Shown: one piece after another, positions 5,843 to 26,973 of the stretch
Layout: every line of letters begins with the position of its first letter
How positions within the stretch are numbered: the stretch's first letter is position 1
Assembly: GCF_046105845.1 (NCBI RefSeq)
Contig: NZ_CP151004.1
DNA length: 64,000 nt
DNA from: Escherichia coli
GTDB taxonomy: Bacteria > Pseudomonadota > Gammaproteobacteria > Enterobacterales > Enterobacteriaceae
Reading direction: 5' to 3' (one strand)
Translations under genes and position numbers: made by a program
The notes under the pieces: generated by a model
What the model was told of the DNA's origin: nothing
Database searches by the model: none
The model's input: the letters and a program-made list of their open reading frames with translations, nothing else

Positions 5843-6757
5843 TCACTCAAAATAGTCCATATCCAGTTTCGGCACCTTCAACAAACGTGAAGAAACCCCT
5901 ACTTCGTTTTCGATCATTAAGTGCACCAGGCGTTCCCCATCAACCAGCACCATACCCTCGACGGATTGGGCAAAGTCACGCGCCTGAGAAGTAAACCCAG
6001 AAGTGGTAATAAACACCCCACGTTTCGCTTTTTGCCCAGCCAGTGCGCCGTAAAATGCCTGTAATTCTGGCCTGCCTACAGTATTCTGCCAACGTTTTGC
6101 CTGAACATAAACTTTCTCCAGGCCAAGTTTATCAAGCGATATCACACCATCGATGCCACCATCTCCAGTACCGCCAACACGCTGCAAATCATCACGGTGG
6201 CCGCCATACCCCAGGCGATGCAAAACATCCAGAACAATGACTTCAAAGCGCGAAGGAGAAACCTGCAATAAGTTTTCCAGAACCTCATCAGCCACCGCAT
6301 CACGAAGCTCTTTTAGCGCCTGATCTAACCGATCGTCCGGGCTGCTCTTTGCAAGTTCTTCATGATCGGGAGAGTCGGCTTTCGGATCTAAATCGACGGC
6401 ATCCGGCCGTGACTTAAGTTTGACATTCACAAAAGCGAAGGCCAGATGGTTCGTCTCCTGCTCCGTCATTGGCTGGGGATGAGACGCAACCCAGTCAAAA
6501 CCCGCAGGAGTCAGGCACCATTTGCCACGCGACAAACTTTGCGACAACCCGGCACGTTTTAAACGGTCATGCGCCCAGCCTGCACGATTTTTATAAACAA
6601 GTTGTCCGCTGGTAATGACTTTCGCTCGCTGGCTGTCATCCAGTCCTAATGCATCCGCGGCAGCCTCATGAACATCACGCGCGGCTGCACCTTCCGGTTT
6701 TGTCGCCAGATAACGCAGAACAGGTTCAATAAATTTGTCATAGGTTGGAACCGTCAT
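5843..6757 (-). CDS. mrr: Type IV methylation-dependent restriction endonuclease Mrr (304 aa)
   Basis: Translation MTVPTYDKFIEPVLRYLATKPEGAAARDVHEAAADALGLDDSQRAK..., with an N-terminal winged-helix and C-terminal Mrr catalytic region; divergent from hsdR. Confidence 0.9.
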   Translation of the reverse strand: MTVPTYDKFIEPVLRYLATKPEGAAARDVHEAAADALGLDDSQRAKVITSGQLVYKNRAGWAHDRLKRAGLSQSLSRGKWCLTPAGFDWVASHPQPMTEQETNHLAFAFVNVKLKSRPDAVDLDPKADSPDHEELAKSSPDDRLDQALKELRDAVADEVLENLLQVSPSRFEVIVLDVLHRLGYGGHRDDLQRVGGTGDGGIDGVISLDKLGLEKVYVQAKRWQNTVGRPELQAFYGALAGQKAKRGVFITTSGFTSQARDFAQSVEGMVLVDGERLVHLMIENEVGVSSRLLKVPKLDMDYFE

Positions 6758-6944
6758 AGTACATCCTTGCAGAATCAGGTAGATGTTTTTCGGCTACTAT
6801 AACACTACAAAAATAGACGAACACGTTAGAAATGAGTCAGTTGCTGTGACTCCGGTCATTGCCCGGAAAGGTACAGAAAGCTAAGATAGGGCGTTATGGG
6901 CCTTAAATATTTGGACAGGCCCACACAGCAATGGATTAATAACA

Positions 6945-9900
6945 ATGATGAATAAATCCAACTTCGAATTCCTGAAGGGCGTCAACGACTTCACTTATGC
7001 CATCGCCTGTGCGGCGGAAAATAACTACCCGGATGATCCCAACACGACGCTGATTAAAATGCGTATGTTTGGCGAAGCCACAGCGAAACATCTTGGTATG
7101 TTACTCAACATCCCCCCTTGTGAGAATCAACACGATCTCCTGCGCGAACTCGGCAAAATCGCCTTCGTTGATGACAACATTCTCTCTGTATTCCACAAAT
7201 TACGCCGCATTGGTAACCAGGCGGTGCACGAATATCATAACGATCTCGACGATGCCCAGATGTGCCTGCGGCTAGGCTTCCGTCTGGCTGTCTGGTACTA
7301 CCGTCTGGTCACCAAAGATTATGACTTCCCGGTGCCGGTATTTGTGTTGCCGGAACGTGGCGAAAACCTCTATCACCAGGAAGTGCTGACGCTAAAACAA
7401 CAGCTTGAACAGCAGGCGCGAGAAAAAGCGCAGACTCAGGCAGAAGTCGAAGCGCAACAGCAGAAGCTGGTTGCCCTGAACGGCTATATCGCCATTCTGG
7501 AAGGCAAACAGCAGGAAACAGAAGCGCAAACCCAGGCTCGCCTTGCGGCGCTGGAAGCACAGCTTGCCGAGAAGAACGCGGAACTGGCAAAACAGACCGA
7601 ACAGGAACGTAAGGCTTACCACAAAGAAATTACCGATCAGGCCATCAAGCGCGCACTCAACCTTAGCGAAGAAGAGAGCCGCTTCCTGATTGACGCGCAA
7701 CTGCGTAAAGCAGGCTGGCAGGCCGATAGCAAAACCCTGCGCTTCTCCAAAGGCGCACGCCCGGAACCCGGCGTCAATAAAGCCATTGCCGAATGGCCGA
7801 CCGGGAAAGATGAAACGGGTAATCAGGGCTTTGCGGATTATGTGCTGTTTGTCGGCCTCAAGCCCATCGCGGTGGTAGAGGCGAAACGTAAAAATATCGA
7901 CGTTCCCGGCAAGCTCAATGAGTCGTATCGCTACAGCAAATGCTTCGATAATGGCTTCCTGCGGGAAACCTTGCTTGAGCATTACTCGCCGGATGAAGTG
8001 CATGAAGCGGTGCCGGAGTATGAAACCAGCTGGCAGGACACCAGCGGCCAACAACGGTTTAAAATCCCCTTCTGCTACTCGACCAACGGGCGCGAATACC
8101 GCGCAGCAATGAAGACTAAAAGTGGCATCTGGTATCGCGACGTGCGTGATACCCGCAATATGTCGAAAGCCTTACCCGAGTGGCATCGCCCGGAAGAGCT
8201 GCTGGAAATGCTCGGCAGCGAACCGCAAAAACAGAATCAGTGGTTTGCCGATAACCCTGGCATGAGCGAGCTGGGCCTGCGTTATTATCAGGAAGATGCT
8301 GTCCGCGCGGTGGAAAAGGCAATCGTCAAGGGTCAACAAGAGATCCTGCTGGCGATGGCGACCGGTACCGGTAAAACCCGTACCGCAATTGCCATGATGT
8401 TCCGCCTGATCCAGTCCCAGCGTTTTAAACGCATTCTCTTCCTTGTCGATCGCCGTTCTCTTGGCGAGCAGGCGCTGGGGGCGTTTGAAGATACGCGTAT
8501 TAACGGCGACACCTTCAACAGCATTTTCGACATTAAAGGTCTGACGGATAAATTCCCGGAAGACAGCACCAAAATTCACGTTGCCACCGTACAGTCGCTG
8601 GTGAAACGCACCCTGCAATCAGATGAACCGATGCCGGTGGCCCGTTACGACTGTATCGTCGTCGATGAAGCGCATCGCGGCTATATTCTCGATAAAGAGC
8701 AGACCGAAGGCGAGCTGCAATTCCGCAGCCAGCTGGATTACGTCTCTGCCTACCGTCGCATTCTCGATCACTTCGATGCGGTAAAAATCGCCCTCACCGC
8801 CACCCCGGCGCTGCATACGGTACAGATTTTCGGCGAGCCGGTTTACCGTTATACCTACCGTACCGCGGTTATCGACGGGTTTCTGATCGACCAGGATCCG
8901 CCTATTCAGATCATCACCCGCAACGCCCAGGAGGGGGTTTATCTCGCCAAAGGCGAGCAGGTTGAGCGCATCAGCCCACAGGGGGAAGTGATCAACGACA
9001 CCCTGGAAGACGATCAGGATTTTGAGGTCGCCGACTTTAACCGTGGCCTGGTGATCCCGGCGTTTAACCGCGCCGTCTGTAACGAACTCACCAACTACCT
9101 TGATCCGACCGGGTCACAAAAAACGCTGGTCTTCTGCGTCACCAATGCCCATGCCGATATGGTGGTGGAAGAGTTGCGTACCGCGTTCAAGAAAAAGTAT
9201 CCGCAACTGGAGCACGACGCGATCATCAAGATCACCGGTGATGCCGATAAAGACGCGCGCAAAGTGCAGACCATGATCACCCGCTTCAATAAAGAGCGGC
9301 TGCCCAATATCGTGGTAACCGTCGACCTGCTGACGACCGGCGTCGATATTCCGTCGATCTGTAACATCGTGTTCCTGCGTAAAGTACGCAGCCGTATTCT
9401 GTACGAGCAGATGAAAGGCCGCGCCACGCGCTTATGCCCGGACGTGAATAAAACCAGCTTTAAGATTTTCGACTGTGTCGATATCTACAGCACGCTGGAG
9501 AGCGTCGACACCATGCGTCCGGTGGTGGTGCGTCCGAAGGTGGAACTGCAAACGCTGGTCAATGAAATTACCGATTCAGAAACCTATAAAATCACCGAAG
9601 CGGACGGCCGTAGCTTTGCCGAGCACAGCCATGAACAACTGGTGGCGAAGCTCCAGCGCATCATCGGCCTGGCCACGTTTAACCGTGATCGCAGCGAAAC
9701 GATAGATAAACAGGTGCGTCGTCTGGATGAGCTATGCCAGGACGTGGCGGGGGTGAGCTTTAACGGCTTCGCCTCGCGCCTGCGGGAAAAAGGACCGCAC
9801 TGGAGCGCCGAAGTCTTTAACAAACTGCCTGGCTTTATCGCCCGCCTGGAAAAGCTGAAAACCGACATCAATAGCCTGAATGATGCGCCGATCTTCCTCG

Positions 9901-10457
9901 ATATTGACGATGAAGTGGTGAGCGTAAAATCGCTGTACGGTGATTACGACACGCCGCAGGATTTCCTCGAAGCCTTTGACTCGCTGGTGCAACGTTCCCC
10001 GAACGCGCAACCGGCATTGCAGGCGGTGATCAATCGCCCGCGCGATCTCACCCGTAAAGGGCTGGTTGAACTCCAGGAGTGGTTTGACCGCCAGCACTTT
10101 GAGGAATCTTCCCTGCGCAAAGCGTGGAAAGAGACGCGCAATGAAGATATCGCTGCCCGGCTGATTGGACATATTCGCCGCGCTGCGGTGGGCGATGCGC
10201 TGAAACCGTTTGAGGAACGTGTCGATCACGCGCTGACGCGCATTAAGGGCGAAAACGACTGGAGCAGCGAGCAATTAAGCTGGCTCGATCGTTTAGCGCA
10301 GGCGCTGAAAGAGAAAGTGGTGCTCGACGACGATGTCTTCAAAACCGGCAACTTCCACCGTCGCGGCGGGAAGGCGATGCTGCAAAGAACCTTTGACGAT
10401 AATCTCGACAACCTGCTTGATAAATTCAGCGATTATATCTGGGACGAGCTGGCCTGA
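6945..10457 (+). CDS. hsdR: Type I restriction enzyme R subunit HsdR (EcoKI family, type IA), 1170 aa
   Basis: N-terminus MMNKSNFEFLKGVNDFTYAIACAAENNYPDDP...; PD-(D/E)XK nuclease region followed by SF2 helicase motifs (LLAMATGTGKTRTAIA Walker A, VVDEAH DEAH box). Confidence 0.95.
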   Translation: MMNKSNFEFLKGVNDFTYAIACAAENNYPDDPNTTLIKMRMFGEATAKHLGMLLNIPPCENQHDLLRELGKIAFVDDNILSVFHKLRRIGNQAVHEYHNDLDDAQMCLRLGFRLAVWYYRLVTKDYDFPVPVFVLPERGENLYHQEVLTLKQQLEQQAREKAQTQAEVEAQQQKLVALNGYIAILEGKQQETEAQTQARLAALEAQLAEKNAELAKQTEQERKAYHKEITDQAIKRALNLSEEESRFLIDAQLRKAGWQADSKTLRFSKGARPEPGVNKAIAEWPTGKDETGNQGFADYVLFVGLKPIAVVEAKRKNIDVPGKLNESYRYSKCFDNGFLRETLLEHYSPDEVHEAVPEYETSWQDTSGQQRFKIPFCYSTNGREYRAAMKTKSGIWYRDVRDTRNMSKALPEWHRPEELLEMLGSEPQKQNQWFADNPGMSELGLRYYQEDAVRAVEKAIVKGQQEILLAMATGTGKTRTAIAMMFRLIQSQRFKRILFLVDRRSLGEQALGAFEDTRINGDTFNSIFDIKGLTDKFPEDSTKIHVATVQSLVKRTLQSDEPMPVARYDCIVVDEAHRGYILDKEQTEGELQFRSQLDYVSAYRRILDHFDAVKIALTATPALHTVQIFGEPVYRYTYRTAVIDGFLIDQDPPIQIITRNAQEGVYLAKGEQVERISPQGEVINDTLEDDQDFEVADFNRGLVIPAFNRAVCNELTNYLDPTGSQKTLVFCVTNAHADMVVEELRTAFKKKYPQLEHDAIIKITGDADKDARKVQTMITRFNKERLPNIVVTVDLLTTGVDIPSICNIVFLRKVRSRILYEQMKGRATRLCPDVNKTSFKIFDCVDIYSTLESVDTMRPVVVRPKVELQTLVNEITDSETYKITEADGRSFAEHSHEQLVAKLQRIIGLATFNRDRSETIDKQVRRLDELCQDVAGVSFNGFASRLREKGPHWSAEVFNKLPGFIARLEKLKTDINSLNDAPIFLDIDDEVVSVKSLYGDYDTPQDFLEAFDSLVQRSPNAQPALQAVINRPRDLTRKGLVELQEWFDRQHFEESSLRKAWKETRNEDIAARLIGHIRRAAVGDALKPFEERVDHALTRIKGENDWSSEQLSWLDRLAQALKEKVVLDDDVFKTGNFHRRGGKAMLQRTFDDNLDNLLDKFSDYIWDELA

Positions 10458-10658
10458 CACGTATACACTTCATCCTTCAGGCTACCTCTGCGTTGGCTGC
10501 GCTCGTTCACCCCGGTCACGTACTTCTGTACGCTCCCGGGGATTCACTCACTTGCCGCCTTGATGCAACCTGAATGATTTTGTGTATATTACCCTCGGCA
10601 ATTTCTTTTTCTGCGGCCCCAAACAATGCGGGCCGCTGCTTAATTTACGGAACTCACA

Positions 10659-12248
10659 ATGAACAATAACGATCTGGTCGCGAAGCTGTGGAAGCTGTGC
10701 GACAACCTGCGCGATGGCGGCGTTTCCTATCAAAACTACGTCAATGAACTCGCCTCGCTGCTGTTTTTGAAAATGTGTAAAGAGACCGGACAGGAAGCGG
10801 AGTACCTGCCGGTAGGCTACCGCTGGGATGATCTGAAATCCCGTATCGGTCAGGAGCAGTTGCAGTTCTACCGTAACCTGCTGGTACATCTGGGCGCCGA
10901 CAATCAAAAGCTGGTGCAGGCGGTGTTCCAGAACGTCAACACCACCATTACCCAGCCGAAACAGTTGACCGAGCTGGTCAGCAATATGGATTCACTGGAC
11001 TGGTACAACGGTGCGCACGGTAAGTCGCGCGATGACTTCGGCGATATGTACGAAGGGCTGCTGCAGAAGAACGCCAACGAAACCAAGTCTGGCGCGGGCC
11101 AGTACTTCACCCCGCGTCCGCTGATTAAAACCATTATTCATCTGCTGAAACCGCAGCCGCGTGAAGTGGTGCAGGATCCGGCAGCAGGTACGGCGGGCTT
11201 TTTGATTGAAGCCGACCGCTACGTTAAGTCGCAAACCAATGATCTGGACGACCTTGATGGCGACACGCAGGATTTCCAGATCCACCGCGCCTTTATCGGC
11301 CTCGAACTGGTGCCCGGCACCCGTCGTCTGGCGCTGATGAACTGCCTGCTACACGATATTGAAGGCAACCTCGACCACGGCGGCGCAATCCGTCTGGGCA
11401 ACACCCTGGGTAGCGACGGTGAAAATCTGCCGAAGGCGCATATTGTCGCCACTAACCCGCCGTTTGGCAGCGCCGCAGGCACCAACATTACCCGCACCTT
11501 TGTCCACCCGACCAGCAACAAACAGTTGTGCTTTATGCAGCATATTATCGAAACGCTGCATCCCGGCGGTCGTGCGGCGGTAGTGGTGCCAGATAACGTG
11601 CTGTTTGAAGGCGGCAAAGGCACCGACATCCGTCGTGACCTGATGGATAAGTGTCATCTGCATACCATCCTGCGTCTGCCGACCGGTATTTTTTACGCTC
11701 AGGGCGTGAAAACTAACGTGCTGTTCTTTACCAAAGGGACGGTGGCGAACCCGCATCAGGATAAGAACTGCACCGATGATGTGTGGGTGTACGACCTGCG
11801 TACCAATATGCCGAGCTTCGGCAAGCGCACGCCGTTTACCGACGAGCATTTGCAGCCGTTTGAGCGCGTGTATGGCGAAGATCCCCACGGTTTAAGCCCG
11901 CGCACTGAAGGTGAATGGAGTTTTAACGCCGAAGAGACGGAAGTTGCCGACAGCGAAGAGAACAAAAACACCGATCAGCATCTGGCTACCAGCCGCTGGC
12001 GCAAGTTCAGCCGCGAGTGGATCCGCACCGCGAAATCCGATTCGCTGGATATCTCCTGGCTGAAAGATAAAGACAGTATTGATGCCGACAACCTGCCGGA
12101 GCCGGATGTATTAGCGGCAGAAGCGATGGGTGAACTGGTGCAGGCGCTGGGCGAACTGGATGCGCTGATGCGTGAACTGGGGGCGAGCGATGAGGCCGAT
12201 TTGCAGCGTCAGTTGCTGGAAGAAGCATTTGGTGGGGTGAAGGAATGA
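10659..12248 (+). CDS. hsdM: Type I restriction-modification N6-adenine DNA methyltransferase subunit HsdM (529 aa)
   Basis: MNNNDLVAKLWKLCDNLRDGGVSYQNYVNELASLLFLKM...; contains the NPPF catalytic motif (ATNPPFGSA) and an AdoMet-binding region. Confidence 0.95.
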   Translation: MNNNDLVAKLWKLCDNLRDGGVSYQNYVNELASLLFLKMCKETGQEAEYLPVGYRWDDLKSRIGQEQLQFYRNLLVHLGADNQKLVQAVFQNVNTTITQPKQLTELVSNMDSLDWYNGAHGKSRDDFGDMYEGLLQKNANETKSGAGQYFTPRPLIKTIIHLLKPQPREVVQDPAAGTAGFLIEADRYVKSQTNDLDDLDGDTQDFQIHRAFIGLELVPGTRRLALMNCLLHDIEGNLDHGGAIRLGNTLGSDGENLPKAHIVATNPPFGSAAGTNITRTFVHPTSNKQLCFMQHIIETLHPGGRAAVVVPDNVLFEGGKGTDIRRDLMDKCHLHTILRLPTGIFYAQGVKTNVLFFTKGTVANPHQDKNCTDDVWVYDLRTNMPSFGKRTPFTDEHLQPFERVYGEDPHGLSPRTEGEWSFNAEETEVADSEENKNTDQHLATSRWRKFSREWIRTAKSDSLDISWLKDKDSIDADNLPEPDVLAAEAMGELVQALGELDALMRELGASDEADLQRQLLEEAFGGVKE

Positions 12249-13615
12249 GTGCGGAGAAATTGCCGGAGGGGTGGGTTGAGTGTGAATTATCCGAACTCGG
12301 TAACATTGTTACAGGGAAAACTCCCAGTACCAAGGAGCCTTCCAATTTTGGAGGCAGCATTCCTTTCATTAAACCAGGCGATCTTGATCTCGGTGGCTAT
12401 ATCATGAATACCGCCGATACTCTGACGGAGAAAGGGTTATCTCTTGTCCCCACTCTTCCTGCCAATTCAGTCGTTGTGACGTGTATTGGAAATTTAGGAA
12501 AAGTTGGAATTACCGCTAAAAAATCAGCATCTAATCAACAAATAAATGCATTGATCCCGTCAGAAAAGCTAAATGTAAAATTTGTTTATTACCAAATTTT
12601 AACATTAAAACCATGGTTAGAGTCTCAATCAGCAGCTACTACAATTGCGATTGTGAACAAGAGCAAATTTTCTCAGGCACCATTTAAATTCCCGTCGCTT
12701 GCCGAACAAAAAATCATCACTGAAAAACTCGATACGCTGCTGGCGCAGGTAGACAGCACCAAAGCACGTCTTGAGCAAATCCCACAAATCCTGAATCGTT
12801 TTCGTCAGGCTATTCTAGCTAATGCTGTGGAAGGAAAATTGACCGACGAATGGCGAGCCGGAAAATGTTATATTACAGAAATCAAAAAAATATCTGATAT
12901 TATTCAGAATGCTCAAGTCGGATTAGTTCGTTCAGCTTCAGATCAAAGCGAAATATGCACTCAAAAAATGAGAACGCCTTATATAAAAATGAATAACATT
13001 CACAATGTTCTCGGAACAAATTTAGAAAAACTCGCTTATGTCAACTGTGATAGCTATGAACTGGAAAAATATAGATTAAAAAATGGAGATTGGCTCTTTA
13101 ATACACGAAATAGTTATGAGTTAGTTGGTAAATCCTGTGTCTGGAATGGATGTAGCAATGCTGTATATAATAATAATATATTAAGAGTTAGACTAAAAGA
13201 AAACTACAATTCTGTTTTTTTAGATTATTGGTTTCACTCGTTCTATGGAGTGAGCATGCTTAATAGTATTAAATCCGCAACAACAAATGTTGCTGCGATA
13301 TATCAGAAAGAACTCTTAAGTAAAAGTGTTCCATTCCCCCCCCTTCCCGAACAAGCCGAGATTGTTCGCCGCGTCGAACAACTCTTCGCCTACGCCGACA
13401 CCATAGAAAAACAGGTCAACAACGCCTTAGCCCGCGTTAACAACCTGACGCAATCCATCCTGGCAAAAGCGTTCCGTGGTGAACTCACCGCCCAGTGGCG
13501 GGCCGAAAACCCGGATTTAATCAGCGGAGAAAACAGCGCCGCCGCGTTGCTGGAAAAAATCAAAGCTGAACGCGCAGCCAGCGGGGGTAAAAAAGCCTCG
13601 CGTAAAAAATCCTGA
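12245..13615 (+). CDS. hsdS: Type I restriction-modification specificity subunit HsdS (456 aa) with divergent AT-rich target-recognition domains
   Basis: ATGA start/stop overlap with hsdM. The conserved central (LAEQKIITEKLDTLLAQVDSTKARLEQIPQIL) and C-terminal (LPEQAEIVRRVEQLFAYADTIEKQVNNALARVNNLTQSILAKAFRGELTAQWR) regions frame two variable segments of visibly lower GC content. Confidence 0.9.
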   Translation: MSAEKLPEGWVECELSELGNIVTGKTPSTKEPSNFGGSIPFIKPGDLDLGGYIMNTADTLTEKGLSLVPTLPANSVVVTCIGNLGKVGITAKKSASNQQINALIPSEKLNVKFVYYQILTLKPWLESQSAATTIAIVNKSKFSQAPFKFPSLAEQKIITEKLDTLLAQVDSTKARLEQIPQILNRFRQAILANAVEGKLTDEWRAGKCYITEIKKISDIIQNAQVGLVRSASDQSEICTQKMRTPYIKMNNIHNVLGTNLEKLAYVNCDSYELEKYRLKNGDWLFNTRNSYELVGKSCVWNGCSNAVYNNNILRVRLKENYNSVFLDYWFHSFYGVSMLNSIKSATTNVAAIYQKELLSKSVPFPPLPEQAEIVRRVEQLFAYADTIEKQVNNALARVNNLTQSILAKAFRGELTAQWRAENPDLISGENSAAALLEKIKAERAASGGKKASRKKS

Positions 13616-13627
13616 TCATTATTTTCT

Positions 13628-13655
13628 GGCGCACCTTTCCGGTGCGCTTTTTATT
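13628..13655 (+). terminator. Rho-independent terminator after hsdS
   Basis: Hairpin GGCGCACC-TTTCC-GGTGCGC followed by TTTTTATT. Confidence 0.6.
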
Positions 13656-13749
13656 ATTTTACGCCAATCATAACTCACGCAAATATATTTAAATCATTCC
13701 AGAAATTGCCTATTTTATTCTATTTTTAGCTGGACTTTCCCTGTATTTA

Positions 13750-13765
13750 CTGATGATATATCCAG
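13750..13765 (+). promoter_or_regulatory. Putative LexA box (SOS operator) in the symE promoter
   Basis: CTGATGATATATCCAG against the consensus CTGT-N8-ACAG (2 mismatches), about 90 bp upstream of the symE start. symE is a known SOS-induced gene. Confidence 0.4.
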
Positions 13766-13771
13766 GTATTT

Positions 13772-13848
13772 AGCGCGGTGCGGATGTGCGCCAACACACC
13801 CGCACCGCTCATCACAATCACTATTCCAGGAGAATAGCAGTTATGACT
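13772..13848 (-). ncRNA. symR: Probable SymR antisense sRNA overlapping the symE 5' UTR, RBS and start codon (coordinates approximate)
   Basis: Placed from established knowledge of the symE/SymR arrangement (a ~77-nt cis-antisense RNA covering the symE translation initiation region). The inverted repeat GCGGTGCGG...CCGCACCGC at 13776..13809 lies within it. Exact ends are not determinable from sequence alone. Confidence 0.35.
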
Positions 13849-14184
13849 GACACGCATTTTATTGCACAACCGTTCGAAGCAGAAGTCTCCCCGGCAAATA
13901 ACCGTCAATTAACCGTGAGTTATGCGAGCCGCTACCCGGATTACAGCCGTATTCCCGCCATCACCCTGAAAGGTCAGTGGCTGGAAGCCGCCGGTTTTGC
14001 CACCGGCACGGCGGTAGATGTCAAAGTGATGGAAGGCTGTATTGTCCTCACCGCCCAACCCCCCGCCGCTGAAGAGAGCGAACTGATGCAGTCGCTGCGC
14101 CAGGTGTGCAAACTGTCGGCGCGTAAACAAAAGCAGGTGCAGGCGTTTATTGGAGTGATTGCCGGTAAACAGAAAGTCGCGTAA
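13843..14184 (+). CDS. symE: SOS-induced toxin-like protein SymE (113 aa; AbrB/SpoVT-fold endoribonuclease-like)
   Basis: [52 protein letters not shown]..., with AGGAG RBS upstream of the ATG at 13843. The ORF track start at 13786 is an upstream in-frame extension. Confidence 0.85.
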
Positions 14185-14345
14185 CAGCGTTTACTCCCGG
14201 TTAACCACCGGGAGCCTTCCACTGACTCAATAGAAACTTTCCCCCTCAGTAAATATTTACCTGCCTGATTGTGCAGTAAAAATCTATTGTTTCAGTACGT
14301 TGCGAAAGCGATAATAGAGGCTTAGCAATGAGGAAGGCACATCTT

Positions 14346-16771: not shown

Positions 16772-16793
16772 GCGGTAAGTTTTATAGAAAATA

Positions 16794-16820
16794 CCGCTCC
16801 CGACACCACATCGGGAGCGG
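16794..16820. terminator. Stem-loop between the convergent mcrC and large helicase genes (likely bidirectional terminator)
   Basis: CCGCTCCCGA-CACCACA-TCGGGAGCGG hairpin located between the mcrC stop (16771) and the helicase stop (16828). Confidence 0.5.
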
Positions 16821-16827
16821 CTCATCA

Positions 16828-19800
16828 TCAGGAGGCGATCACCTCCACCAGCACATCCGTTGCCCAACTCTCTTCGCTGTTGGCGACATTCCCTTCCTTG
16901 CAGGCCTGAGCCATTTTGACTAACTGGAAAGAAACGTCATCGCGGAAATCAAAGTAATGCCATTGCGATGCAAAGTTGATGCGCCAGTAGCCCATCCCCT
17001 GATCGAAGCGGATCTTCAATACCTGACCATCATCAAAAGTCACCGTCAGTTTACGATGGTGAGGGATATCGCGCGGCGAGTCGAACACCGTCAGTTCTAC
17101 CGGCCTGCCCAGCGCAGCAGCAAACCACTGATCAGCGAAATCCTGAAAATCCGCTATGCTCATCCAGTCATGGAAAGGCCGGTTACCGGGGCGATCTTTA
17201 TCTTTAAATAGCGTATCCAGCGTCACTTCAGCGCCATCGGTCAGCTTTGTTTTTAGCGGTCTCAAAATTGATCCCAACAACGCCAGCGCAACCGGGTTTT
17301 GCAGATAGCGATCGGTATAGTGAACGCCGGTAATTCGCGTGTTATTCATCAGTGACTGCGCTTCTTCATGGTCGTTAAACAGCACGTCCCAGAAGCGTTG
17401 CCCAAACTGCGACAGTGGTCCATTCAACTGTTTGTGGATCTGAATGTCTTTGACCCGCTCGACAGCGTTGGCGGCTTTAGCCGGCAGAATAAATTCGTTC
17501 AGCTCTACCGTTTTATAGCCGAGACTACGTACCACCAGTTCGTCATTCAGGTGCCACTCCGGCCCCGGAATCGTTGCCTGCTGGCTACGAGAGGCCAGCG
17601 TCATCACGCGATCGGCAAAGGTGACCTGAGCAACGATCGGTAATTTCAAATCCTGTTCAACATGGCATAGCCGCACACCCAGCGCAGTAAATTGCGATAG
17701 TTCGTGCAACAGGTCCGGGTCATCCACTCCCGCAGGAATAACAAGATCGACCTCGACGTTGTCTTTTAGCCGATAGTTCTGAACCGCCGCGCGGAACTGA
17801 CGTGCGTATAAATCCCACTCATTGGGCGCGCCGGTCATCCACAGGGTGAGCTTTTCAGCGCCTTCGTTAATCGCCCGGCGAATCGTATCGCCAATGGCGC
17901 CAGGGCAGTAGCGGGCATCCGGCAGCGAGAATGTCTCTTCATCCGGTAAACCGATGTAATACGTGAAGTCATCGCCAAGCCAGGCCAGCGCCGCTTTGCG
18001 ATCCAGCAAATCGTGATCGTGGCGAGTCTGGGAATCAAGCAGGCATTCACTACATGCAGTCTCACAATGGCGGCAGCCTAACTGTTTCACCATTCCCTGC
18101 AATATAGCTTCAATGTGTACCGGTGCGCTGGAGGCAAAACCTGCACCACCGCTGATCACATCATAAAGCTGTACGGCTAATACCGATTGCCCATCCTCCA
18201 GTCTGACCGGACGTACAGAATAGCCGAGTTCTGCGGCGGAGATACCCAGAACGCCCGCCAGCGCCTGACGCAGAGCAACCGCCAGAGTCATGGCAACAAT
18301 CCGCCCCTCCTCTGTGTTATCTGGCAGATACTCGCCGTTTTGCGGTTTGCGCAGAACCATTTCAAAGACATCGGTGCGCGCCAGTGCGCCCAGGGTGACG
18401 TTCTTCATGAGTGCCGTCGAACCGGGGCAAATCAGACGATGATTCTGGCTATCGCGGTCCGCTTTACCCGGACGCGGTGGATAGTGAGCTTCCATGCTTT
18501 TCGGCGCATCATTTTCATTCAGCATCGACTCAGCACGGCCACAGCTCAGACACAATGCATAACCGTGTCCACCTTCCCCCAAACTTTGCTGGAAAACATG
18601 CCCATCAGCCCCAGAAGCCATATAACCCATTAGCGGGTTAGGCAACGGTACGGGCTCTGCTTTAACAAAGACCCACGCGGGGACAACCGGGACGAATTTC
18701 ATGGTTTCAATATTGTTCGTTACCGGAGCGTGTGCATCGGTGACAAACCCGGCAGGCTGCAGCACCTGACGGCGATTATCCATGATTATTTTTTCGCCGC
18801 AGGCGCTATTGGAGCAAAAGAGCATCCCGGAACTGCTCATCCCCTCTTCATAGCCAATGGTCCCGCATTTGTGACAGCGCCAGGCGCAATCCAGACGCTG
18901 GGCTTCATTGGTATCAGCATTAATGTTGTGCCAGTGCAGTGAGACACCGGCAGAGCGGAAGACACGGCCATCAAGAATGATCTCTGCTCCCGGTGCATAT
19001 TCACGAATGGCAACACCGAGGTTACGGGAAGGTAATCCTTTATAACGGGAGACGTTATCTTCACGGTCCTTTTTATCACGACTTTTTTGCGATTTTTCGC
19101 GGATATAATCTTCCATTGTGAAGTTATCAAACGTCACTACATCTGTCGGGAAACCGTATCCCGGCAAGAAGGTTCTGGCAGCTAGATCGCGCAGCAGATA
19201 CTCGCCACAGTGCCGTTTCTTCTCCAGCTCTATGCGCTTACGATAAGGCGTTTGCGGCTGCGACTCACGCTCCTGTGTCACGAGATCGCGATAAACGGAG
19301 AGCCACCGCTGCTGCAGGAAGGTGATCGCGTTGATTGTTTTATCCCGCAGATATTCGGCTCTTGCACCATGCAACGCCGTACCTTTCACCAGCCGTTCCA
19401 GCGCCGTGTCGATATCAAGAACAGGGCGTTCCAGCCAGACTTTGAAGCGTTCGCATTTTGACTGCCCGTCATCTTCACCGAAAAACCAGAGGCTATCGAG
19501 GCTGGTTTTCTCTTTATCGGTTTCGCCAATAACGTTACATAAAAAGTCGGACAGTAATAATGCATTGACGTGACGTTGCACCAGTCGGGCGGAGTTCATC
19601 GCGACCATGGGTGCCGGGATCATGGTTTCAAATGGCCAGAGCGGGTTGGCAAAAACCTGCTGGTCGTGTGGGTTACCTTTACATAGGGTGTAAGAGATCG
19701 CACGTGATTCTTTACTACGCCCGGCTCGCCCGGCGCGCTGTAAATAGTTGGCCGGATGTGGCGGTACGTTGTTCATTACCACCGCAGTAATGCCCCCGAT

Positions 19801-22800
19801 ATCAACCCCCATTTCCATGGTGGTGGAACAGTTGAGAACATTTAGTTGCCCATTCTTGAACATCTTTTCATAGCTTTGCAGACGTTCTGACGACTGCTGG
19901 GCAGAGTGCTCGGCAGTGCGATAGTAGAAACCGCCTTCCACGACACGATCGTTGATGTCTGTCCAGACGTTTTCCGACCGCAATTGTGCGATCAGCGGAT
20001 CATTGCTGACCCAGTCGCGTGCTTTTGCCAGACCCTCTGCGTAGTCTTCCTGTGAACGATCCAGCTTCCAGATTTCCGGCATGGTGACTTTCTGCGCGAC
20101 AAAAGTGTCATATTGCGCCTGGGTAAGATGCTCGAACGAAATATGGGTAGGCAGATAAGGGGTTAAGCCTTTAAAAGCCGTATCCAGGATTTTATTGGTT
20201 ACCGGGCAAATCCAGGCATCCGTGATTAATGAAAAAGTCATATGCTCTTTCGGTAAATAAAAACGGTTGCCATCGGGTTTCAGTACTGCAAGCGGTCCGG
20301 TAAGTTGGGCCCATGCTTCTTTCAGCCATGTATTGATAATATCAATAGTCGCCGTATTGACGGTTTTGAATCCAGCCCCCAGCATCAGTAACTTCGCTAA
20401 ACGATGGGATACGTTGCCATTACGAATTTGAGGCCAGCGTCTGTTCTGATTATCTTCAGGATCTTTTGATTCCGGGTTACGGACGAATTTTGATGAAAAA
20501 CGGCTACCGATCCAGTTTTTCAGCTCATCATCCAGCTGTGTGAAGTTGCTCTCACGAACGTAATGATCCAGCGTAACTTTGAGAAAATCGCGCCAGTCAT
20601 CCAGCGTTAATCCTTTTTCCTGCCAGTGCAGAGGGATCTTATGTATTTTCTCCAGCCCCAGGTAACCAACCTGAACCAGCCCTTGTGTTTCCAGGCTGTT
20701 AGTCCGTTTAGGGCGACGCATGAATTCCCGGAATAACAACATTTCCGAAAGCTTTAGAGGCCCGCCGTTTTCATTAAACACTTCAGGCTTAAGATAATGG
20801 TTATATTGCAGAACCGGGCCACGGATATCGGCTCTCTCTTTAAGCTCGTTAACCATTTCTGTCCAGGTTCGGGATACCAGAGTAATTGCAGCTTTTCCAC
20901 CGATTGCAGACTGGTAAGCCTGTTCAAGCTGCTCGGCCTGCGCTTCTGATAATTTCGCTTGATCCGGCAATCCCCAGCTTCGATATTCTTCTGCCTGCTC
21001 ACGGGCTTGCTTTACCCTGGTCGCTAATTTTTCCAGATCGGCATTAGCGTTCGGCGCCGTGGGCGTTTGCGTTCGTTGATGCCAGCTCAGAATTTCGACT
21101 ACGCTTCCGCGTAAGCGACTACGTTCTGCTTCTTGCTGCATACGCACCGCCATCCGGGCTGTCCCTTGTCGACTATCCGTAAAGGTAATGAGTCGACGTC
21201 CTCGCCCTGGCAACGAATCTGGTCCGACGCCCTCTTTGCCTTCATCACTGGCAAAGTCCTGACAATACTCAAGAACGGTAGGCACGATGTTAGTAACGTA
21301 AAATGGCCCACCTAATAATGCACGCCGAAAGGGTTGTTTTCCGCTCATGCCTCGGTAGCCACAGCCGCTGGCGCTACAAACCTGTTCAATATCATTAATA
21401 ATCAGCGGAATGCTGTCATTATTAATAACGCCAATACGGCGCGTCTGACGGTCGAGGCGTTGTAGGGTATAGCCTGTCTCGCTGGTCTCTCCTGCGGCAA
21501 TAATCAACGGAGGCTGGAAACTGTTCTCTTTTTCGACTTTTTCCTCTGTAGTGTCATGTTCAACAGGTACTTCATCCTGCAAGGAGAACTCATCGCCACC
21601 TTTATTTTCCCATTGGACAAGTTTGCCCTTTTTGTCCTGCGCCAGAAGATGAGGCTCATTACAATCATTACAGAACGCCACTTCGTATACAGGGCTTCCA
21701 CAGTCACAATTTTGTCGCTGGTTCACATACACATAGCCAAAGGGCCAGCCTTTTTCGAGCGGTGTACCGTGCTTTAATCTGCAATCTTTATCAACACAAG
21801 CCCATATTCCCTGGGTATTACGCTGGAAGATATGCGCCCTGACTTTAAGAAATGCGGGATCCTTTGCATTAGGTTGAGTCCCTGAACAGACATCGATCCA
21901 ACGCAGTACTTCCTGCTGGCTGTAATGCTGTTTTGTCAGCACGTTTAACCGCTCTGTTATCTCATCCAGCTTCATCGGATTGGGCTGTTTGACCAACATC
22001 TCACGTATGTAACGCGCTTCGGGGGAATGCGTAAGCGCATAAAAGCGATCAGGACTTATACCTTTAATTTTATTATCATTTTTATCTCTTAGATCCAGAT
22101 CGGGTATTTGCTCTATTTCGTCTAACGGAAGAGAAACGTTTTTGGATGGTTCCAGTTCAGGAATCACCCGACTTCCGTCCAGAACATCGATGCGCTCCTT
22201 CGGGATACCGGATAATTCAGAGAGAAATTTTTTCAGCTGCTTTTCGACGTCGCTGCCGGCAATGGTCGCAGAGGTCGCTACAAAGCGCACATCATCTGGC
22301 GTCACGCCAAACGCTGTCATCACACGACGCAGCTGGAGCGCCAGTTCAGCGGCCTGCGACCCGACATAGGTATGCGCTTCATCCAGTACAATCCAGCGTA
22401 GTGATTTTTGTGCTTTGGATTGCTGGATAATCGGGGCGTCGACCTGGCGAACCATCATATATTCCAGCATCGTGCCGTTGGTCACCAGAATCGGGGCAGG
22501 TTCTTCACGCATTTTTTCGCGCGAGAGCACCTCATTCGGCCTTTTTGCCTGTTCGCTTTTTACCGAAGCGTGTAGGTTTTCGGTGTTACCGTTGTAAAGG
22601 CAGTAGCGGATCCCGGTACCAAAACCACGCGTCCAGGCATCCAGACGCTCGCGCTGTGAATTAATCAGGGCGTTCAATGGATAGAGAAAAAGGGCTCGGA
22701 CACCGACCAACGGATTGTTGCCATTTTCATGCAGTTCCCGGTAAAGATCTTCCAGCACCGGTACCATAAAACATTCCGTTTTACCTGAACCCGTACCACT

Positions 22801-23172
22801 GGTTACCACCACTGAATGTTTCTTTTCCAGCAAAGCTTTCCAACTGGCTAACTGGTGTGTAAAAGGCTTCCAGTCAGCACCAAATCGGTACCGGCCATTA
22901 CTCTGATCATCCAGTGAATCAACCACTGCTTTGCTCAACAATGCGTTGCCTTCCGTCAGACTGCGCATCGTGTGGTTTGACTCCTTCCAGCCAAACATTT
23001 GCTGGAATACCGGAGAAGCAAGGAATGAGCCCGGTTTCCCACAATCAGCCCCCATTTGTTGCGCGAGATGTTCACGCAGCTGCGGGTTGGTTACGCCCAT
23101 GATACTGAGCGTTGCTTCAGTTGAACGAGACAACGATTGTTCAATAAGTGACGAAAAATAGCGTGTAGTCAT
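16828..23172 (-). CDS. druE: Giant (2114 aa) SF2 DEAH-box helicase with MrfA-type Zn-binding (DUF1998/MZB-like) Cys clusters; candidate Druantia type III DruE-like defense helicase
   Basis: Walker [10 protein letters not shown] (~22780..22800), DEAH box VLDEAHTY (~22367..22384), SAT motif, motif [10 protein letters not shown] (~19718..19741), Cys4 clusters CHKCG...CSNSACG and [11 protein letters not shown] (~18040..18880). Forms an operon with the 1112-aa gene upstream (12-bp gap). The DruE name is inference from size, architecture and locus, not a verified hit. Confidence 0.75.
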
Positions 23173-23184
23173 CCTTATTCCTTT

Positions 23185-26100
23185 TTATTTTTTAGCAACA
23201 TAACGCAACAGGCTGCACTGAAAGATGGTCTTAAACCAGCGGGAATCGAAGTCCCTGACTTGCCTCAGGAAAAATACGGCACCGGGTTTACGGTCAAATA
23301 CAGCTTCAAAAGAAGTATTTCCGCTTGCCACAGCTGCAGCGAAGACGGGTAACCAGGCCACGGAATAGCGGTGATTTGCGTCAGGATTAATACCAATCAC
23401 TGGCTTTTTTTGTGACATCATCCATTTATACAGACGCTTGCAGCCATATTCAGGCCAGCGAGCTTCACTGTGCTCACGTAAAAGCTCCTGATACCACCCG
23501 TGGACACAAGATTCAGGAATAGACGGAGGGAGATATCCGTTACTTAACCATTTCTCAATTTCATCGGCATATGTCGGGAACACGAGCCCCAGCCGTTGAA
23601 ACATATTAGTAACCAGTAATTTCTGGGTTTCCTCCGGTGCACCTTTTTGGCTCAGGAACAATTTGAAACGCTCAGATGCAGCTTTGATCTCAAAGATGGG
23701 GAAAAACTCCCATAGAATAGGGAACTCATTCTCAATACGACTCAGGTACTCTGCTGACATTTCAAATTTGAAGAGCGACATTGCCAATGCCTGCGGATGC
23801 TGCACCAGTGCACGCCATACTTCAAAGGTTGCCAGTGGTAAATACCCGAATTGATCGTACAGGCTACGCATAAATTGCCAGCCGGAATGGGCAGGATCGT
23901 TAGCCATCTGTCCGAGAACCAGTGTGATGGTATTAACTTCTGCCTGTGGATTAAAAAGCTGGGTCGCTTTCTGCAATGAGCGGATGTTGCTTTCTTCTAC
24001 CGGTAACGAAGATTCGCCACGAATGAAGCAGGGACGAAAAGCCATCTCTTCACCCGGTTTAGGGACAACCAACCACGGTCCATTTTTGTTAACGATTGAG
24101 CTCAACTCATATTCACCGACAGGCACTCCCTCGCTCATTCTAGATGCTAAGGGAATGGATTTCCTCTCGGGTTCACTTAACAGCATGATAACGGGGGAAG
24201 GAATCTGCCCAGCACGATGGTTCACTGACTGGCTGAGTAATAGTTCTTTTTCATAATCATAGCGCAGGCTGTATTTATAGCGACGAATTTGCCAGGCCAT
24301 GACCACACCTGCCCCCGTAATACGCATCTCAACAACCTGATCAATACCTGCCTCAAGTGAAATCAGGTTCTCAATATGTTCGCGAAGACTATAGAGATTC
24401 AATTCAACAGGACGATCGCTCAACGCCGTATAACACCATTCATGCCATGCCTGTAATCCACTAACGGAGCGCAAATACAACTGCAATGTATATTTTGTCG
24501 GCTCACCATTTCTGGAGAACAGAAACGCTCTGGAACCCAGCAGATCATGCAGCGTAATGTTTTTATCCAGAGGACGTCCGTTTACATCAAGAGCGAGACA
24601 GCCTTTAGCGGGAAAAGGTAACTCAATGTCGATGGGGTCAGCCGCCAAATTAGGCAGAACTTGTAATGTAATAAATGCCGGAGGTACCCCTTCCGCTTTA
24701 AGTTGTATCTCTGTTCGCCCCTCAGTACGCTTACGTGTAGCCTCCAATGTTTTATCTTTAAGTTTTGCTACACAAGGATGCTGTGTGGTGATTAAGATAG
24801 TGCCTTCATTTGCGTGCATTCCACCTTTTATCTCAATACTGAAATCAGCAGGCAAGATACCGATTTTGCGACGCAAGAGCGTTTCATTGTTACTATTACG
24901 GATAGAAAGATATTGAGCCCCCAGCATCTCTTGTATATGACATTGCTCAATTGAAATTCCGCTCAGGTAACGCGTTACATCAATGCTTTGAATATCCGGT
25001 AGTGTAGAAATGACTTTTGGTACACCAATAAATGTTTCATCTGGATGACAAACCCAGCTTGCACGCTTTCCATTTAGAGCAAACCTTCCGATGCTGATTT
25101 GTTCTCTTCCGGTGCGAATCCGATAAGTTTCATTTGCTGTAACTGTAACGTCCTGACATCCCTTCACAGGTAGTGCTTTTAGTCCTAATACGTTTACTGC
25201 GCTCGATTGGCCATCAAAACCAGCAACATTGCTATTATCCCGAGGGAGTACAATCAGAACATCGCTGCTTCGCACACTGCAAGAAGCCTGTCCCTGTAAC
25301 AGCCATTGATCTGCATCAACGATGAAGGTTAACGGCACCTCACCAATGGCAATTTCACTGTCATCAAGTTTAATGCTCCCAACAATCATCCCTCCAGCAC
25401 GAGCCACTAATGACAAACCTGCCGATGGATTTTGCCTGACAAATCTCACTTCGCTTTTACGTAATCGAACTGTTGCCTGTCTGTTTTCCAGGGAAGCATA
25501 GGCTGGCCCAAGGCCAGAGACTTCCTCACCATCTTCACAAATGGCAAGTTCAAAGCGCGTAGTTGACGGCTCGCTTGTTACAGGAAAGGAAACTTCGTCC
25601 GGAAGAGATACTATCACCCTAAGCTCATCTGGATGCTTTTCTGACCAATAGAATTGGCAACGCGTACTCTTATTTTTTTGTAGTCGAGGCTTAGCCTCTA
25701 CAGAGGCTGCGCATAGCAGTCCATTCAAAAAATGCGTTCCTGTTTCATCATCTAACGGTATTGGAAACTCGCTTCGCCAGGTAGGGTGAACCTTCTCAAG
25801 CTGTTGTACTGGTTCTTTGTGATTTATTAGGTTGTGAGTAAGTACTAAGGAATTGAGGTTATCAGCCATATGACTGATAAGTTCTACAGAGGTATCTTCG
25901 CTAAAAACAGTTGGCAGCGCTGATTTTTCTATGACAGCTCTTGCCAGCGAAAGGGCAGAAAAACCTGACTGCTTTGCTTGCTCATATTGTCCAAGGATCC
26001 TGGAGAAAACAGCCAGAAAGCGACTGTCTGATTCTTTGAGTAGCCGGAAAGGTAAACCACCTTCACTGAATAATGTTCCGAGAAAATTGCGTCGTTCAGA

Positions 26101-26523
26101 TTCATAAAATCGAATTGGGCGCAGCCAGTAATCTTCCATCCCTTTCGGTACGATAGTACCAAGCTCTGTGGCGGTGAATGAAATCCCTATTTTTTTATAT
26201 ATAGGGTCCCACGTCCATCCGCATTGCCGTTCATAATCCCTGCGGTACCACTCAGAGCAAAAAAGAACAAAACAGGCAGCAAAGTCCCTATTACATATAT
26301 TAGATTGTGATTGATCGACCGCACGGAGTAGCTGCGTTAATTGGGTATATTCATCATTGGTTGCATGATATTCATAAAGAGGACGGCCATCCGGTTGTCT
26401 CAACCCTCTAAGATTCACAAAGTTACTTAGCCAGGAAGTACATTTTACCCATGAAATGTATTCTGATTGACCCAAAGCAAGCTCCTTAGAGATAAAAGAT
26501 ACAAAAACAAAACCCCACAACAC
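23185..26523 (-). CDS. druH: Large (1096-1112 aa) protein of unknown function encoded immediately upstream of the giant helicase; candidate Druantia type III DruH-like partner
   Basis: Uninterrupted 1112-codon ORF with no recognisable catalytic motifs, co-directional and near-contiguous with the helicase gene. Start is uncertain: GTG at 26523, or TTG at 26475 preceded by a strong AAGGAG SD. An AT-rich promoter region lies upstream (26524..26970). Confidence 0.65.
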   Translation of the reverse strand: MLWGFVFVSFISKELALGQSEYISWVKCTSWLSNFVNLRGLRQPDGRPLYEYHATNDEYTQLTQLLRAVDQSQSNICNRDFAACFVLFCSEWYRRDYERQCGWTWDPIYKKIGISFTATELGTIVPKGMEDYWLRPIRFYESERRNFLGTLFSEGGLPFRLLKESDSRFLAVFSRILGQYEQAKQSGFSALSLARAVIEKSALPTVFSEDTSVELISHMADNLNSLVLTHNLINHKEPVQQLEKVHPTWRSEFPIPLDDETGTHFLNGLLCAASVEAKPRLQKNKSTRCQFYWSEKHPDELRVIVSLPDEVSFPVTSEPSTTRFELAICEDGEEVSGLGPAYASLENRQATVRLRKSEVRFVRQNPSAGLSLVARAGGMIVGSIKLDDSEIAIGEVPLTFIVDADQWLLQGQASCSVRSSDVLIVLPRDNSNVAGFDGQSSAVNVLGLKALPVKGCQDVTVTANETYRIRTGREQISIGRFALNGKRASWVCHPDETFIGVPKVISTLPDIQSIDVTRYLSGISIEQCHIQEMLGAQYLSIRNSNNETLLRRKIGILPADFSIEIKGGMHANEGTILITTQHPCVAKLKDKTLEATRKRTEGRTEIQLKAEGVPPAFITLQVLPNLAADPIDIELPFPAKGCLALDVNGRPLDKNITLHDLLGSRAFLFSRNGEPTKYTLQLYLRSVSGLQAWHEWCYTALSDRPVELNLYSLREHIENLISLEAGIDQVVEMRITGAGVVMAWQIRRYKYSLRYDYEKELLLSQSVNHRAGQIPSPVIMLLSEPERKSIPLASRMSEGVPVGEYELSSIVNKNGPWLVVPKPGEEMAFRPCFIRGESSLPVEESNIRSLQKATQLFNPQAEVNTITLVLGQMANDPAHSGWQFMRSLYDQFGYLPLATFEVWRALVQHPQALAMSLFKFEMSAEYLSRIENEFPILWEFFPIFEIKAASERFKLFLSQKGAPEETQKLLVTNMFQRLGLVFPTYADEIEKWLSNGYLPPSIPESCVHGWYQELLREHSEARWPEYGCKRLYKWMMSQKKPVIGINPDANHRYSVAWLPVFAAAVASGNTSFEAVFDRKPGAVFFLRQVRDFDSRWFKTIFQCSLLRYVAKK

Positions 26524-26973
26524 TTCTAATTTGAAAGAAAACTTTTCAAAATATCGTATAATTAATCAGGCGGCAACAACTAATTTTTCAGGTCGGTACT
26601 ATAAATTAATTTTAGATAAAAATGATATCAACCATCTATTAATCACAACTCATTTATCACCTGGTTTTATAATTTCAAATGAAAATAAATCTCAAACAAT
26701 CAAAAAGTATGCAGTAGCTAACATTTAACTTTCCAGGATATAAAACAATTAGAGAAACTGCACAATAGCGAATAATGAAAGTTGTAAAGTCAGTCAAAAA
26801 ACACAAGCAATCAGTGTGCGTTTTTTGACCGTTATCGACATGAGTTTAAAGAGTTTAGTGAAGAAGATATTCCTGTACACTCCATACCTATTGATGAATT
26901 GTCTCGGGAAAATTTTTATAACTTAATTTAAAAACATAAAAACGTTTTATTATATATAAATCTATACCCCCCC

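Follow-up and report, generated by a model that had tools for sequence, protein, structure and literature searches.

A 64,000-nucleotide stretch of Escherichia coli DNA (NCBI RefSeq assembly GCF_046105845.1, contig NZ_CP151004.1; hereafter the window) was analyzed with a focus on positions 5843–26523. Gene assignment revealed that mrr, type IA hsdRMS, symE/symR, mcrBC, and a Druantia operon lie next to one another in this interval, as had been claimed in an original prediction of five contiguous defense or toxin modules. On the open reading frame (ORF) map, nine long genes fill the interval and leave no space for more, and its limits are ORF ends, 5843 being the stop of mrr and 26523 the start of the longest druH ORF. 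The left flank carries tsr, btsT, yjiX, and yjiA, and the right flank carries yjiS, yjiR, an Rpn-family gene, mdtM, and yjiN; the locus is that near 98 min on the K-12 map, in reversed orientation. The interval is the E. coli immigration control region (ICR), defense hotspot #36, and is thus a real island, but one already described. Detailed study of defense islands began with the ICR, which yjiA and yjiN delimit and for which type IA, IB, or ID systems, Mrr, either McrBC or GmrSD, brnAT, symE/symR, and rpn have been reported (PMC12707154). The anchors named for it, including yjiA, were all found here, with yjiA on the left and yjiS, yjiR, and the mdtM and yjiN region on the right (PMC12707154). 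Hochhauser et al. described hotspot #36 as 'occasionally' carrying Druantia and type IV systems (PMC10121019), and DruH has been placed in YjiT, a family that the ICR encodes (PMC13192584). The features of the locus are summarized in Table 1.

Table 1. Features of the interval and its flanks in window coordinates, with the matches that support them and base composition measured as GC and GC3 per gene or segment
Feature	Coordinates	Strand	Description	Support	GC	GC3
btsT, yjiA, yjiR			neighboring core genes			0.64–0.69
yjiA	4841..5797	+	GTPase, conserved anchor to the left of the variable part	position shared by every E. coli locus compared
mrr	5843..6757	-	type IV modification-dependent restriction endonuclease, 304 aa	PADLOC mREase_IV 579.8 bits, residues 1–304	0.51	0.47
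hsdR	6945..10457	+	type IA restriction subunit, 1170 aa	NCBIfam NF008521 1743 bits (cut-off 729); PADLOC REase_I 2798 bits	0.54	0.65
hsdM	10659..12248	+	type IA methyltransferase, 529 aa	PADLOC MTase_I 764.6 bits	0.56	0.68
hsdS	12245..13615	+	specificity subunit, 456 aa	PADLOC Specificity_I 504.9 bits	0.41	0.38
hsdS target-recognition domains (TRDs)	TRD1 12278–12689; TRD2 12856–13348	+	AT-rich	conserved parts of hsdS have GC 0.48–0.58	0.39 / 0.32
Terminator-like hairpin	13628..13648	+	3' of hsdS	8-pair stem, then T run
LexA-box-like CTG-N10-CAG	13750..13765	+	5' of symE	consensus pattern match only, CTGATGATATATCCAG
symR	13772..13848	-	antisense antitoxin RNA	Rfam RF01809 93.5 bits (gathering 61), full model 1–77
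symE	13843..14184	+	endoribonuclease toxin, predicted to be SOS-induced, 113 aa	NCBIfam NF010128 226.2 bits (cut-off 132)	0.55	0.60
mcrBC cassette as insertion	14181..16794	+	2,614 bp versus 13 bp in Escherichia whittamii	alignment with the E. whittamii locus
mcrB	14346..15725	+	GTPase and DNA-binding subunit, type IV, 459 aa	NCBIfam NF008457 1100 bits (cut-off 637)	0.40	0.38
mcrC	15725..16771	+	nuclease subunit, 348 aa	NCBIfam NF007277 440.7 bits (cut-off 338)	0.38	0.35
Strong hairpin	16793..16821		between convergent mcrC and druE	13-pair stem, 8 G-C
druE (yjiV)	16828..23172	-	helicase-nuclease, 2114 aa	PADLOC DruE3 2696.7 bits, full length	0.51	0.53
druH (yjiT)	23185..26475	-	second component, 1096 aa; ORF reaches 26523	PADLOC DruH3 1829.3 bits, full length	0.45	0.40 (5' half 0.32–0.37)
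AT-rich spacer	26524..26973		upstream of druH, putative druHE promoter region		0.28
yjiS (DUF1127)	26974..27153	-	right boundary gene	same position in relatives with different cassettes
yjiR	27315..28727	+	conserved flank gene	annotated in relatives; 97.2–97.9% identity
Rpn-family homologue	28971..29928	-	recombination-promoting nuclease, frameshifted	NCBIfam Rpn family 110.9 bits (cut-off 52.1)

The mrr gene is a full-length homologue of its K-12 counterpart with 99.6% nucleotide identity. SymR overlaps the start codon of symE (ATG at 13843), which is the arrangement of the SymE/SymR type I toxin-antitoxin system, in which SymE is an SOS-induced toxin and SymR represses it. PADLOC returned no McrC or SymE model match and only weak McrB matches; the identities of McrB, McrC, and SymE were settled by NCBIfam equivalogs, with the NF008457 alignment beginning at residue 7 of the 465-aa mcrB ORF. 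The mcrB stop and the mcrC start overlap at 15725. Mrr and McrBC are enzymes that cut DNA carrying foreign adenine or cytosine methylation.

The NF008521 score of hsdR, far above its cut-off, and the 95–97% nucleotide identity of hsdR and hsdM to K-12 (96.9% and 95.2%, respectively) place the restriction-modification (RM) genes in the type IA, or EcoKI, family. Enzymes of this family methylate a bipartite site, and unmodified sites lead to translocation and DNA cutting. The identity of hsdM to strains HCP5S3_I2 and Res13-Lact-PER13-34 was 98.7–99.0%. Within hsdS, the conserved segments 12245–12277, 12690–12855, and 13349–13615 align to K-12, whereas both TRDs do not. Since HsdS scored 469 bits with the EcoKI HsdS equivalog NF007278, under the cut-off of 662, its specificity is predicted to differ from that of EcoKI. 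The full hsdS allele of the window was found in 3 of 5,426 complete E. coli genomes, the set on which all population counts given here are based; TRD1 is 100% common to Res13-Lact-PER13-34, whereas TRD2 is not. The hsdS gene of HCP5S3_I2 (locus L001, 14402–15772) is 100% identical to the intact 456-aa ORF, yet RefSeq/PGAP annotates it as two partial pseudogenes; this split may arise from each half of hsdS best matching a different reference protein.

What had been predicted as a Druantia-like operon proved to be a true Druantia type III system, with DruE3 and DruH3 matched over their full lengths and the domain set and motifs present. The druH gene lies directly upstream of druE on one strand, separated by a 12-bp gap and accompanied by no other dru genes, and it also matched the NCBIfam model YjiT_fam (1261.5 bits; cut-off 150). 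Pfam analysis of DruE revealed DEAD (residues 106–310), Helicase_C (1085–1153), and MZB/DUF1998 (approximately 1631–1711) domains, and GSGKT128, DEAH264, RAGR1146, and CxxC...CxxC at 1700–1710 are kept, as judged by motif and not by whole-protein residue alignment. Counterparts of these helicase and zinc-binding motifs are needed for defense in the E. coli ATCC8739 system (10.64898/2026.05.13.724758). A Pfam scan of DruH found no family and was uninformative, the Pfam copy used apparently being without YjiT_N and YjiT_2nd (PF27201, PF27205), two families that do occur among the precomputed matches of the genome collection. Alignment with solved structures covered DruE end to end (9tu7, 1026 bits) but DruH only over N-terminal residues 14–266 (9tud, 80.5 bits).

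The characterized Druantia III systems (ECOR19, ATCC8739, and EDL933; PDB 9tu7 for DruE and 9tud for DruH) share with the window the two-gene druH–druE operon, the DEAD, Helicase_C, and MZB domains, and the defense motifs, but they belong to another clade and sit on a SPIDER/OI-172 element with Zorya II and ARMADA II. According to 2026 preprints, DruE forms a dimer with 3'-to-5' helicase activity, which is loaded onto exposed single-stranded DNA (ssDNA) and has C-terminal PLD-type nuclease domains, DruE and DruH are both needed for defense, and defense clears the phage while the cell survives, with no need for host methylation (PMC13192584; 10.64898/2026.05.13.724758). Our literature search found no phage assay of an ICR-type Druantia III. 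As a consensus scan of the AT-rich spacer upstream of druH gave no sigma-70 match, we infer rather than read from a recognizable site that the druHE promoter likely lies there. Among E. coli carriers, druH is near-invariant (99.1–99.9% nucleotide identity) and druE is a mosaic of 95–100% blocks; between genera the pattern is reversed, with amino-acid identities of 62–77% for DruH and 78–91% for DruE.

Base composition is mosaic, as had been proposed, in that the hsdS variable segments (GC 0.32–0.39) and mcrBC (0.38–0.40) stand apart from hsdR and hsdM (0.54–0.56). The accompanying claim that the helicase operon is close to core-genome GC applied to druE, whose GC of 0.51 is near the genome average, but not to druH, which is clearly lower (GC 0.45, GC3 0.40).

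Population analysis revealed that any part of the interval was present in 2,922 of the 5,426 genomes, mostly as symE alone, which is the most widespread element and makes up the bulk of these matches. With at least 80% of the length covered, mrr was found in 943 genomes (17%), type IA hsdRM in 927 (17%), mcrBC in 581 (11%), and druHE in 231 (4%), with 674 genomes containing any part of druHE. At least 80% of the whole interval was present in 222 genomes (4%), a coverage that does not guarantee the presence of every module. O157-kind type IB hsdRM genes (941 genomes) and an N3-type M-S-R system (115 genomes) were counted anywhere in the chromosome and are not locus-specific. The mcrC–druE junction occurred in 588 genomes versus 581 with mcrBC; in E. 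coli, mcrBC practically always adjoins druE.

The flanks are conserved across nearly all E. coli genomes, and the strain-variable content with alternative restriction cassettes that marks the ICR was found between them. The yjiA–yjiS slot of O157:H7 holds HNH/DUF262, type IB hsdRMS, symE, and GmrSD; that of strain N3 holds BrnTA, Fic, a GmrSD disrupted by IS4, and a further type I system; and that of strain PKF4 begins with mrr, type IA hsdRMS, and symE, after which GmrSD takes the place of mcrBC–druHE. The O157:H7 (type IB and GmrSD) and N3 haplotypes have yjiA and yjiS/yjiR as anchors in common with the window and follow its plan of combining a type I system, type IV enzymes, and a toxin module, but their defense genes are non-homologous, Druantia is absent, and N3 is without symE. 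The K-12 ICR (mrr–hsdRMS–symE–mcrBC–yjiV/yjiT) has the same anchors, order, and orientation as the window, with 95–99.6% identity for mrr, hsdR, hsdM, symE, and mcrBC. It differs in its HsdS (EcoKI, 464 aa), which has other TRDs and aligns only in the conserved segments, and in its druE/druH (yjiV/yjiT), which are full length in the window and pseudogenes in K-12 owing to two internal deletions that map to window positions 17616–19796 and 21950–24966. Strain 2012C-4221 carries IS100 inside druH, and in strain Res13-Lact-PER13-34 mcrB is frameshifted with druHE intact beside it. In strains that carry this arrangement, decay has affected individual modules independently of one another.

Identity to relatives is block-wise. 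The closest complete genome for the interval, HCP5S3_I2 (NZ_CM149870.1), covers 100% of it at 97.9% identity with all modules and with hsdS and symE 100% identical, but it differs in its druE (only 96–97% identical), in an IS3 element beside yjiS, and in the PGAP annotation of hsdS described above. Conversely, druE is 99.9–100% identical over 4 kb to that of 2012C-4221 and Res13-Lact-PER13-34, whose hsdS differs. The value of 97.9% is the best interval match among complete genomes, the left flank reached 98.4% at best, and E. whittamii reached approximately 94–96%; as no complete genome is near-identical to the window, its source appears to be an E. coli lineage absent from the complete genomes searched. 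Compared with other E. coli, the island-border genes are more diverged (yjiA 95.6–97.1%, yjiS 93–100%, yjiR 97.2–97.9%) than btsT a few kb away (98–99%), consistent with the elevated polymorphism reported near the hsd region.

An invariant arrangement of uniform composition had been named in the original prediction as the outcome that would speak against it. Neither was observed, given the 222 of 5,426 genomes at the 80% level, the differing frequencies of the modules, and the GC mosaic. The arrangement is not fixed and the composition is mosaic, and the hotspot reading is therefore supported. In the window, no tRNA, no integrase homologue, and no flanking repeats beyond chance-level 18–25-mers were found; the integrase, tRNA/att site, and flanking direct repeats of an integrative island are lacking, and this is an island without mobility genes of its own.

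A DruH scan of species-representative genomes revealed ten loci, nine of them enterobacterial. In all nine, which represent nine species in seven genera (Serratia sp., Raoultella planticola, Pseudenterobacter timonensis, Escherichia whittamii, two Citrobacter, two Proteus, and Enterobacter quasihormaechei), druH–druE lies tail to tail with type IA hsdS–hsdM–hsdR, as in the window; in the two loci for which the gap was measured, it spans some tens of bases, and symE stands between the two parts in three of the nine. Amino-acid identity to the window ranged from 93 to 99% for HsdM, 78 to 97% for DruE, and 62 to 95% for DruH. Outside Escherichia the flanks differ, with the block adjoining a P4-type tyrosine integrase and/or tRNA-Leu(CAA) and not yjiA–yjiS: the order in Proteus is lptF/G, beta-lactamase, tRNA-Leu, integrase, hsdRMS, druEH; Pseudenterobacter has two integrase genes upstream of hsdR; and Serratia, Raoultella, and P. 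vulgaris have integrase homologues close by. Because the tail-to-tail arrangement recurs in nine other species, in several of them beside a P4-type integrase and tRNA-Leu(CAA), type IA hsdRMS and druEH appear from their gene order to travel together. At the Salinisphaera locus, nothing beyond a weak and broken HsdM-like match was found, PADLOC matched nothing nearby, and the locus therefore provides no independent support for an RM–Druantia pairing outside the enterobacterial block. In Pseudenterobacter timonensis (locus L010, 7283–9317), an HNH restriction endonuclease of the kind that binds phosphorothioated DNA (NF045808, 443.8 bits), together with a PDC-S02 candidate defense gene, lies directly upstream of druH, so that this Druantia–RM block likewise stands beside further restriction and candidate defense genes.

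In contrast to the window, mcrBC was absent from all nine enterobacterial loci. The E. whittamii locus has the ICR layout (yjiR–yjiS–druH–druE–symE–hsdS–hsdM), and in its alignment with the window homology resumes at the hairpin 16793–16821, the same hairpin lying there between symE and druE. No target-site duplication was evident at the ends of the mcrBC cassette. With polarity assigned by parsimony, the most economical reading is that mcrBC would be a 2.6-kb AT-rich insertion at the junction of the hsdRMS–druEH pair. The expectation of several independent acquisitions at one hotspot is thus borne out by the alternative cassettes and the block mosaicism, but not in the form of five independent units, as hsdRMS and druEH form a pair and mcrBC sits beside druE.

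Taken together, it is very probable that the interval represents the ICR, hotspot #36, in a haplotype of the K-12 type whose hsdS allele is rare and whose Druantia III operon is undamaged, and that its modules act as layered, largely independent barriers. With biochemical activities taken from the literature for the genes identified here, the EcoKI-family type IA enzyme would cut DNA without its methylation pattern, and Mrr and McrBC would cut DNA with foreign methylation. DruH, as the likely sensor, and DruE, with its 3'-5' helicase and PLD-type nuclease domains, would attack phage DNA intermediates containing ssDNA, and SymE would act as an SOS-induced RNA-cleaving toxin restrained by the antisense RNA SymR. 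The contents of the locus would turn over by homologous recombination via yjiA, the conserved parts of hsdS, symE, and yjiS/yjiR, exchange through such conserved anchors being the most plausible mechanism. Alongside the composition, population variability, block mosaicism, and hsd–dru adjacency observed here, we infer an order of acquisition in which the type IA hsdRMS and druEH pair, found on integrase and tRNA-Leu islands in other genera, would have come first. Subsequently, symE/symR and then the AT-rich mcrBC cassette would have been inserted at the convergent junction, the hsdS TRDs would have been swapped as cassettes, and GmrSD would have replaced the segment right of symE in part of the population.

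Several points weigh against this interpretation. The term 'intact' refers to full-length ORFs with conserved motifs only. Because the characterized systems are of another clade and the similarity of DruH is limited to its N-terminal part, the sensor mechanism can be carried over to DruH here only by analogy. The genome counts are inflated by K-12 laboratory derivatives, which account for many of the partial druHE matches. Since the nine foreign loci were found via close DruH relatives and their HsdM is 93–99% identical, they are copies of one spreading block and not independent observations. Loss of mcrBC in all nine would also account for its absence, although this is less parsimonious than one insertion.

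Two readings would treat the interval as a single entity. A one-time acquisition of the entire 21 kb as a single mobile genomic island is highly improbable: although the hsdRMS–druEH part adjoins a P4-type integrase and tRNA-Leu(CAA) in other genera, composition differs sharply between the modules, these differ in population frequency and are replaced separately, and mcrBC is missing from all nine related loci. Integrase, tRNA, and flanking repeats were not found in the window, and the single-island candidate was rejected on this ground. An ancestral, vertically inherited core segment, whose composition would reflect functional constraint and not foreign origin, agrees with the core-like GC3 of hsdR, hsdM, and symE (0.60–0.68) and with flanks conserved in nearly all genomes. 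It is nevertheless scarcely credible, as most of the interval occurs in only 4% of complete genomes, non-homologous systems occupy the same slot in other strains, and the identity blocks are mosaic; the pan-genome counts refuted it. HsdM is also 93–96% identical in Proteus and Serratia, far above the orthologue identity that is usual for these genera.

A further possibility, which we regard as unlikely but worth serious attention, is that the modules are held together by mechanistic cooperation, with the products of restriction by type I or type IV enzymes being processed by RecBCD to ssDNA that feeds Druantia III. The adjacency of type IA hsdRMS and druEH in nine species and the mcrC–druE junction in 588 genomes versus 581 with mcrBC point in this direction, but linkage within one spreading block is expected without functional coupling. 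Wu et al. reported non-random co-localization in E. coli for Druantia III paired with RM I and likewise for its pairing with RM IV (10.1101/2022.08.21.504612), and type I and type IV RM are enriched around several Druantia III clusters (PMC13192584); no RM neighborhood data were found in the supplementary tables of PMC13192584. Druantia III acts on ssDNA intermediates, synergy between it and Zorya II is RecBCD-dependent, and phage families targeted by Druantia III are likewise sensitive to RM (PMC13192584; 10.64898/2026.05.13.724758), whereas cloned Druantia III-A defends without host methylation (10.64898/2026.05.13.724758). The independent decay of modules also argues against cooperation: K-12 no longer has a functional-length druHE, whereas its hsdRMS and mcrBC are still annotated as intact, Res13-Lact-PER13-34 has the mcrB frameshift, and 2012C-4221 has IS100 in druH. 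Our literature search found no experiment on an hsdRMS/mcrBC–Druantia pairing. A more specific version, in which type IA RM and YjiT/YjiV-type Druantia III would be a co-transferred functional pair, restriction, or RecBCD acting on restricted DNA, giving ssDNA-containing substrates for DruE, and the junction would serve as a landing pad for symE/symR, mcrBC, and GmrSD, is offered tentatively and is rather improbable. Defense-system synergy at the hotspot, as the original prediction put forward, is a reasonable suggestion.

Layered, largely independent barriers in the ICR remain our preferred reading, and the locus is a textbook defense island whose value lies in being a well-controlled natural test bed and not in discovery. 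The additions made here are modest: the pairing of type IA hsdRMS with druEH across genera on integrase/tRNA-Leu islands, the exact boundaries of the mcrBC insertion, and the rarity of the hsdS allele. A haplotype with all modules full length, including the Druantia III lost by K-12, could be used to ask whether restriction and Druantia III are additive or cooperative, and the cross-genus pairing together with the precise mcrBC insertion gives a concrete, testable history of island assembly.

Further features were observed elsewhere in the window. Between tsr and btsT, an 823-bp AT-rich insert (1421–2243, GC approximately 0.39) is absent in K-12 and HCP5S3_I2 and present in 362 of the 5,426 genomes, mostly at 80–90% identity (O157:H7). 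Its ORF at 1508–2134 (+), of approximately 180–208 aa, had no family match, with a faint hint of a TnsA-like endonuclease (E = 0.14) and an ALEIK motif. The Rpn-family gene is frameshifted by a single additional T near 29736 when compared with the intact gene of N3, and two diverged allele types of it occur, the copy in the window being 97.9% identical to that of N3 and 88–90% to those of K-12, HCP5S3_I2, and O157. At 35579–37669 (+), an AT-rich gene (GC 0.35) encoding a 696-aa pentapeptide-repeat protein occupies the site at which O157 has a gene with the annotation of type III secretion system (T3SS) effector EspX6; its frame is open in the window, and an internal stop is annotated in Res13-Lact-PER13-34. 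Finally, 40223–45463 (+) encodes a 1746-aa inverse autotransporter adhesin, whose IatC N-terminal domain scored 1120 bits, below the cut-off of 2400, and which occupies the position annotated as iatD in Res13-Lact-PER13-34.

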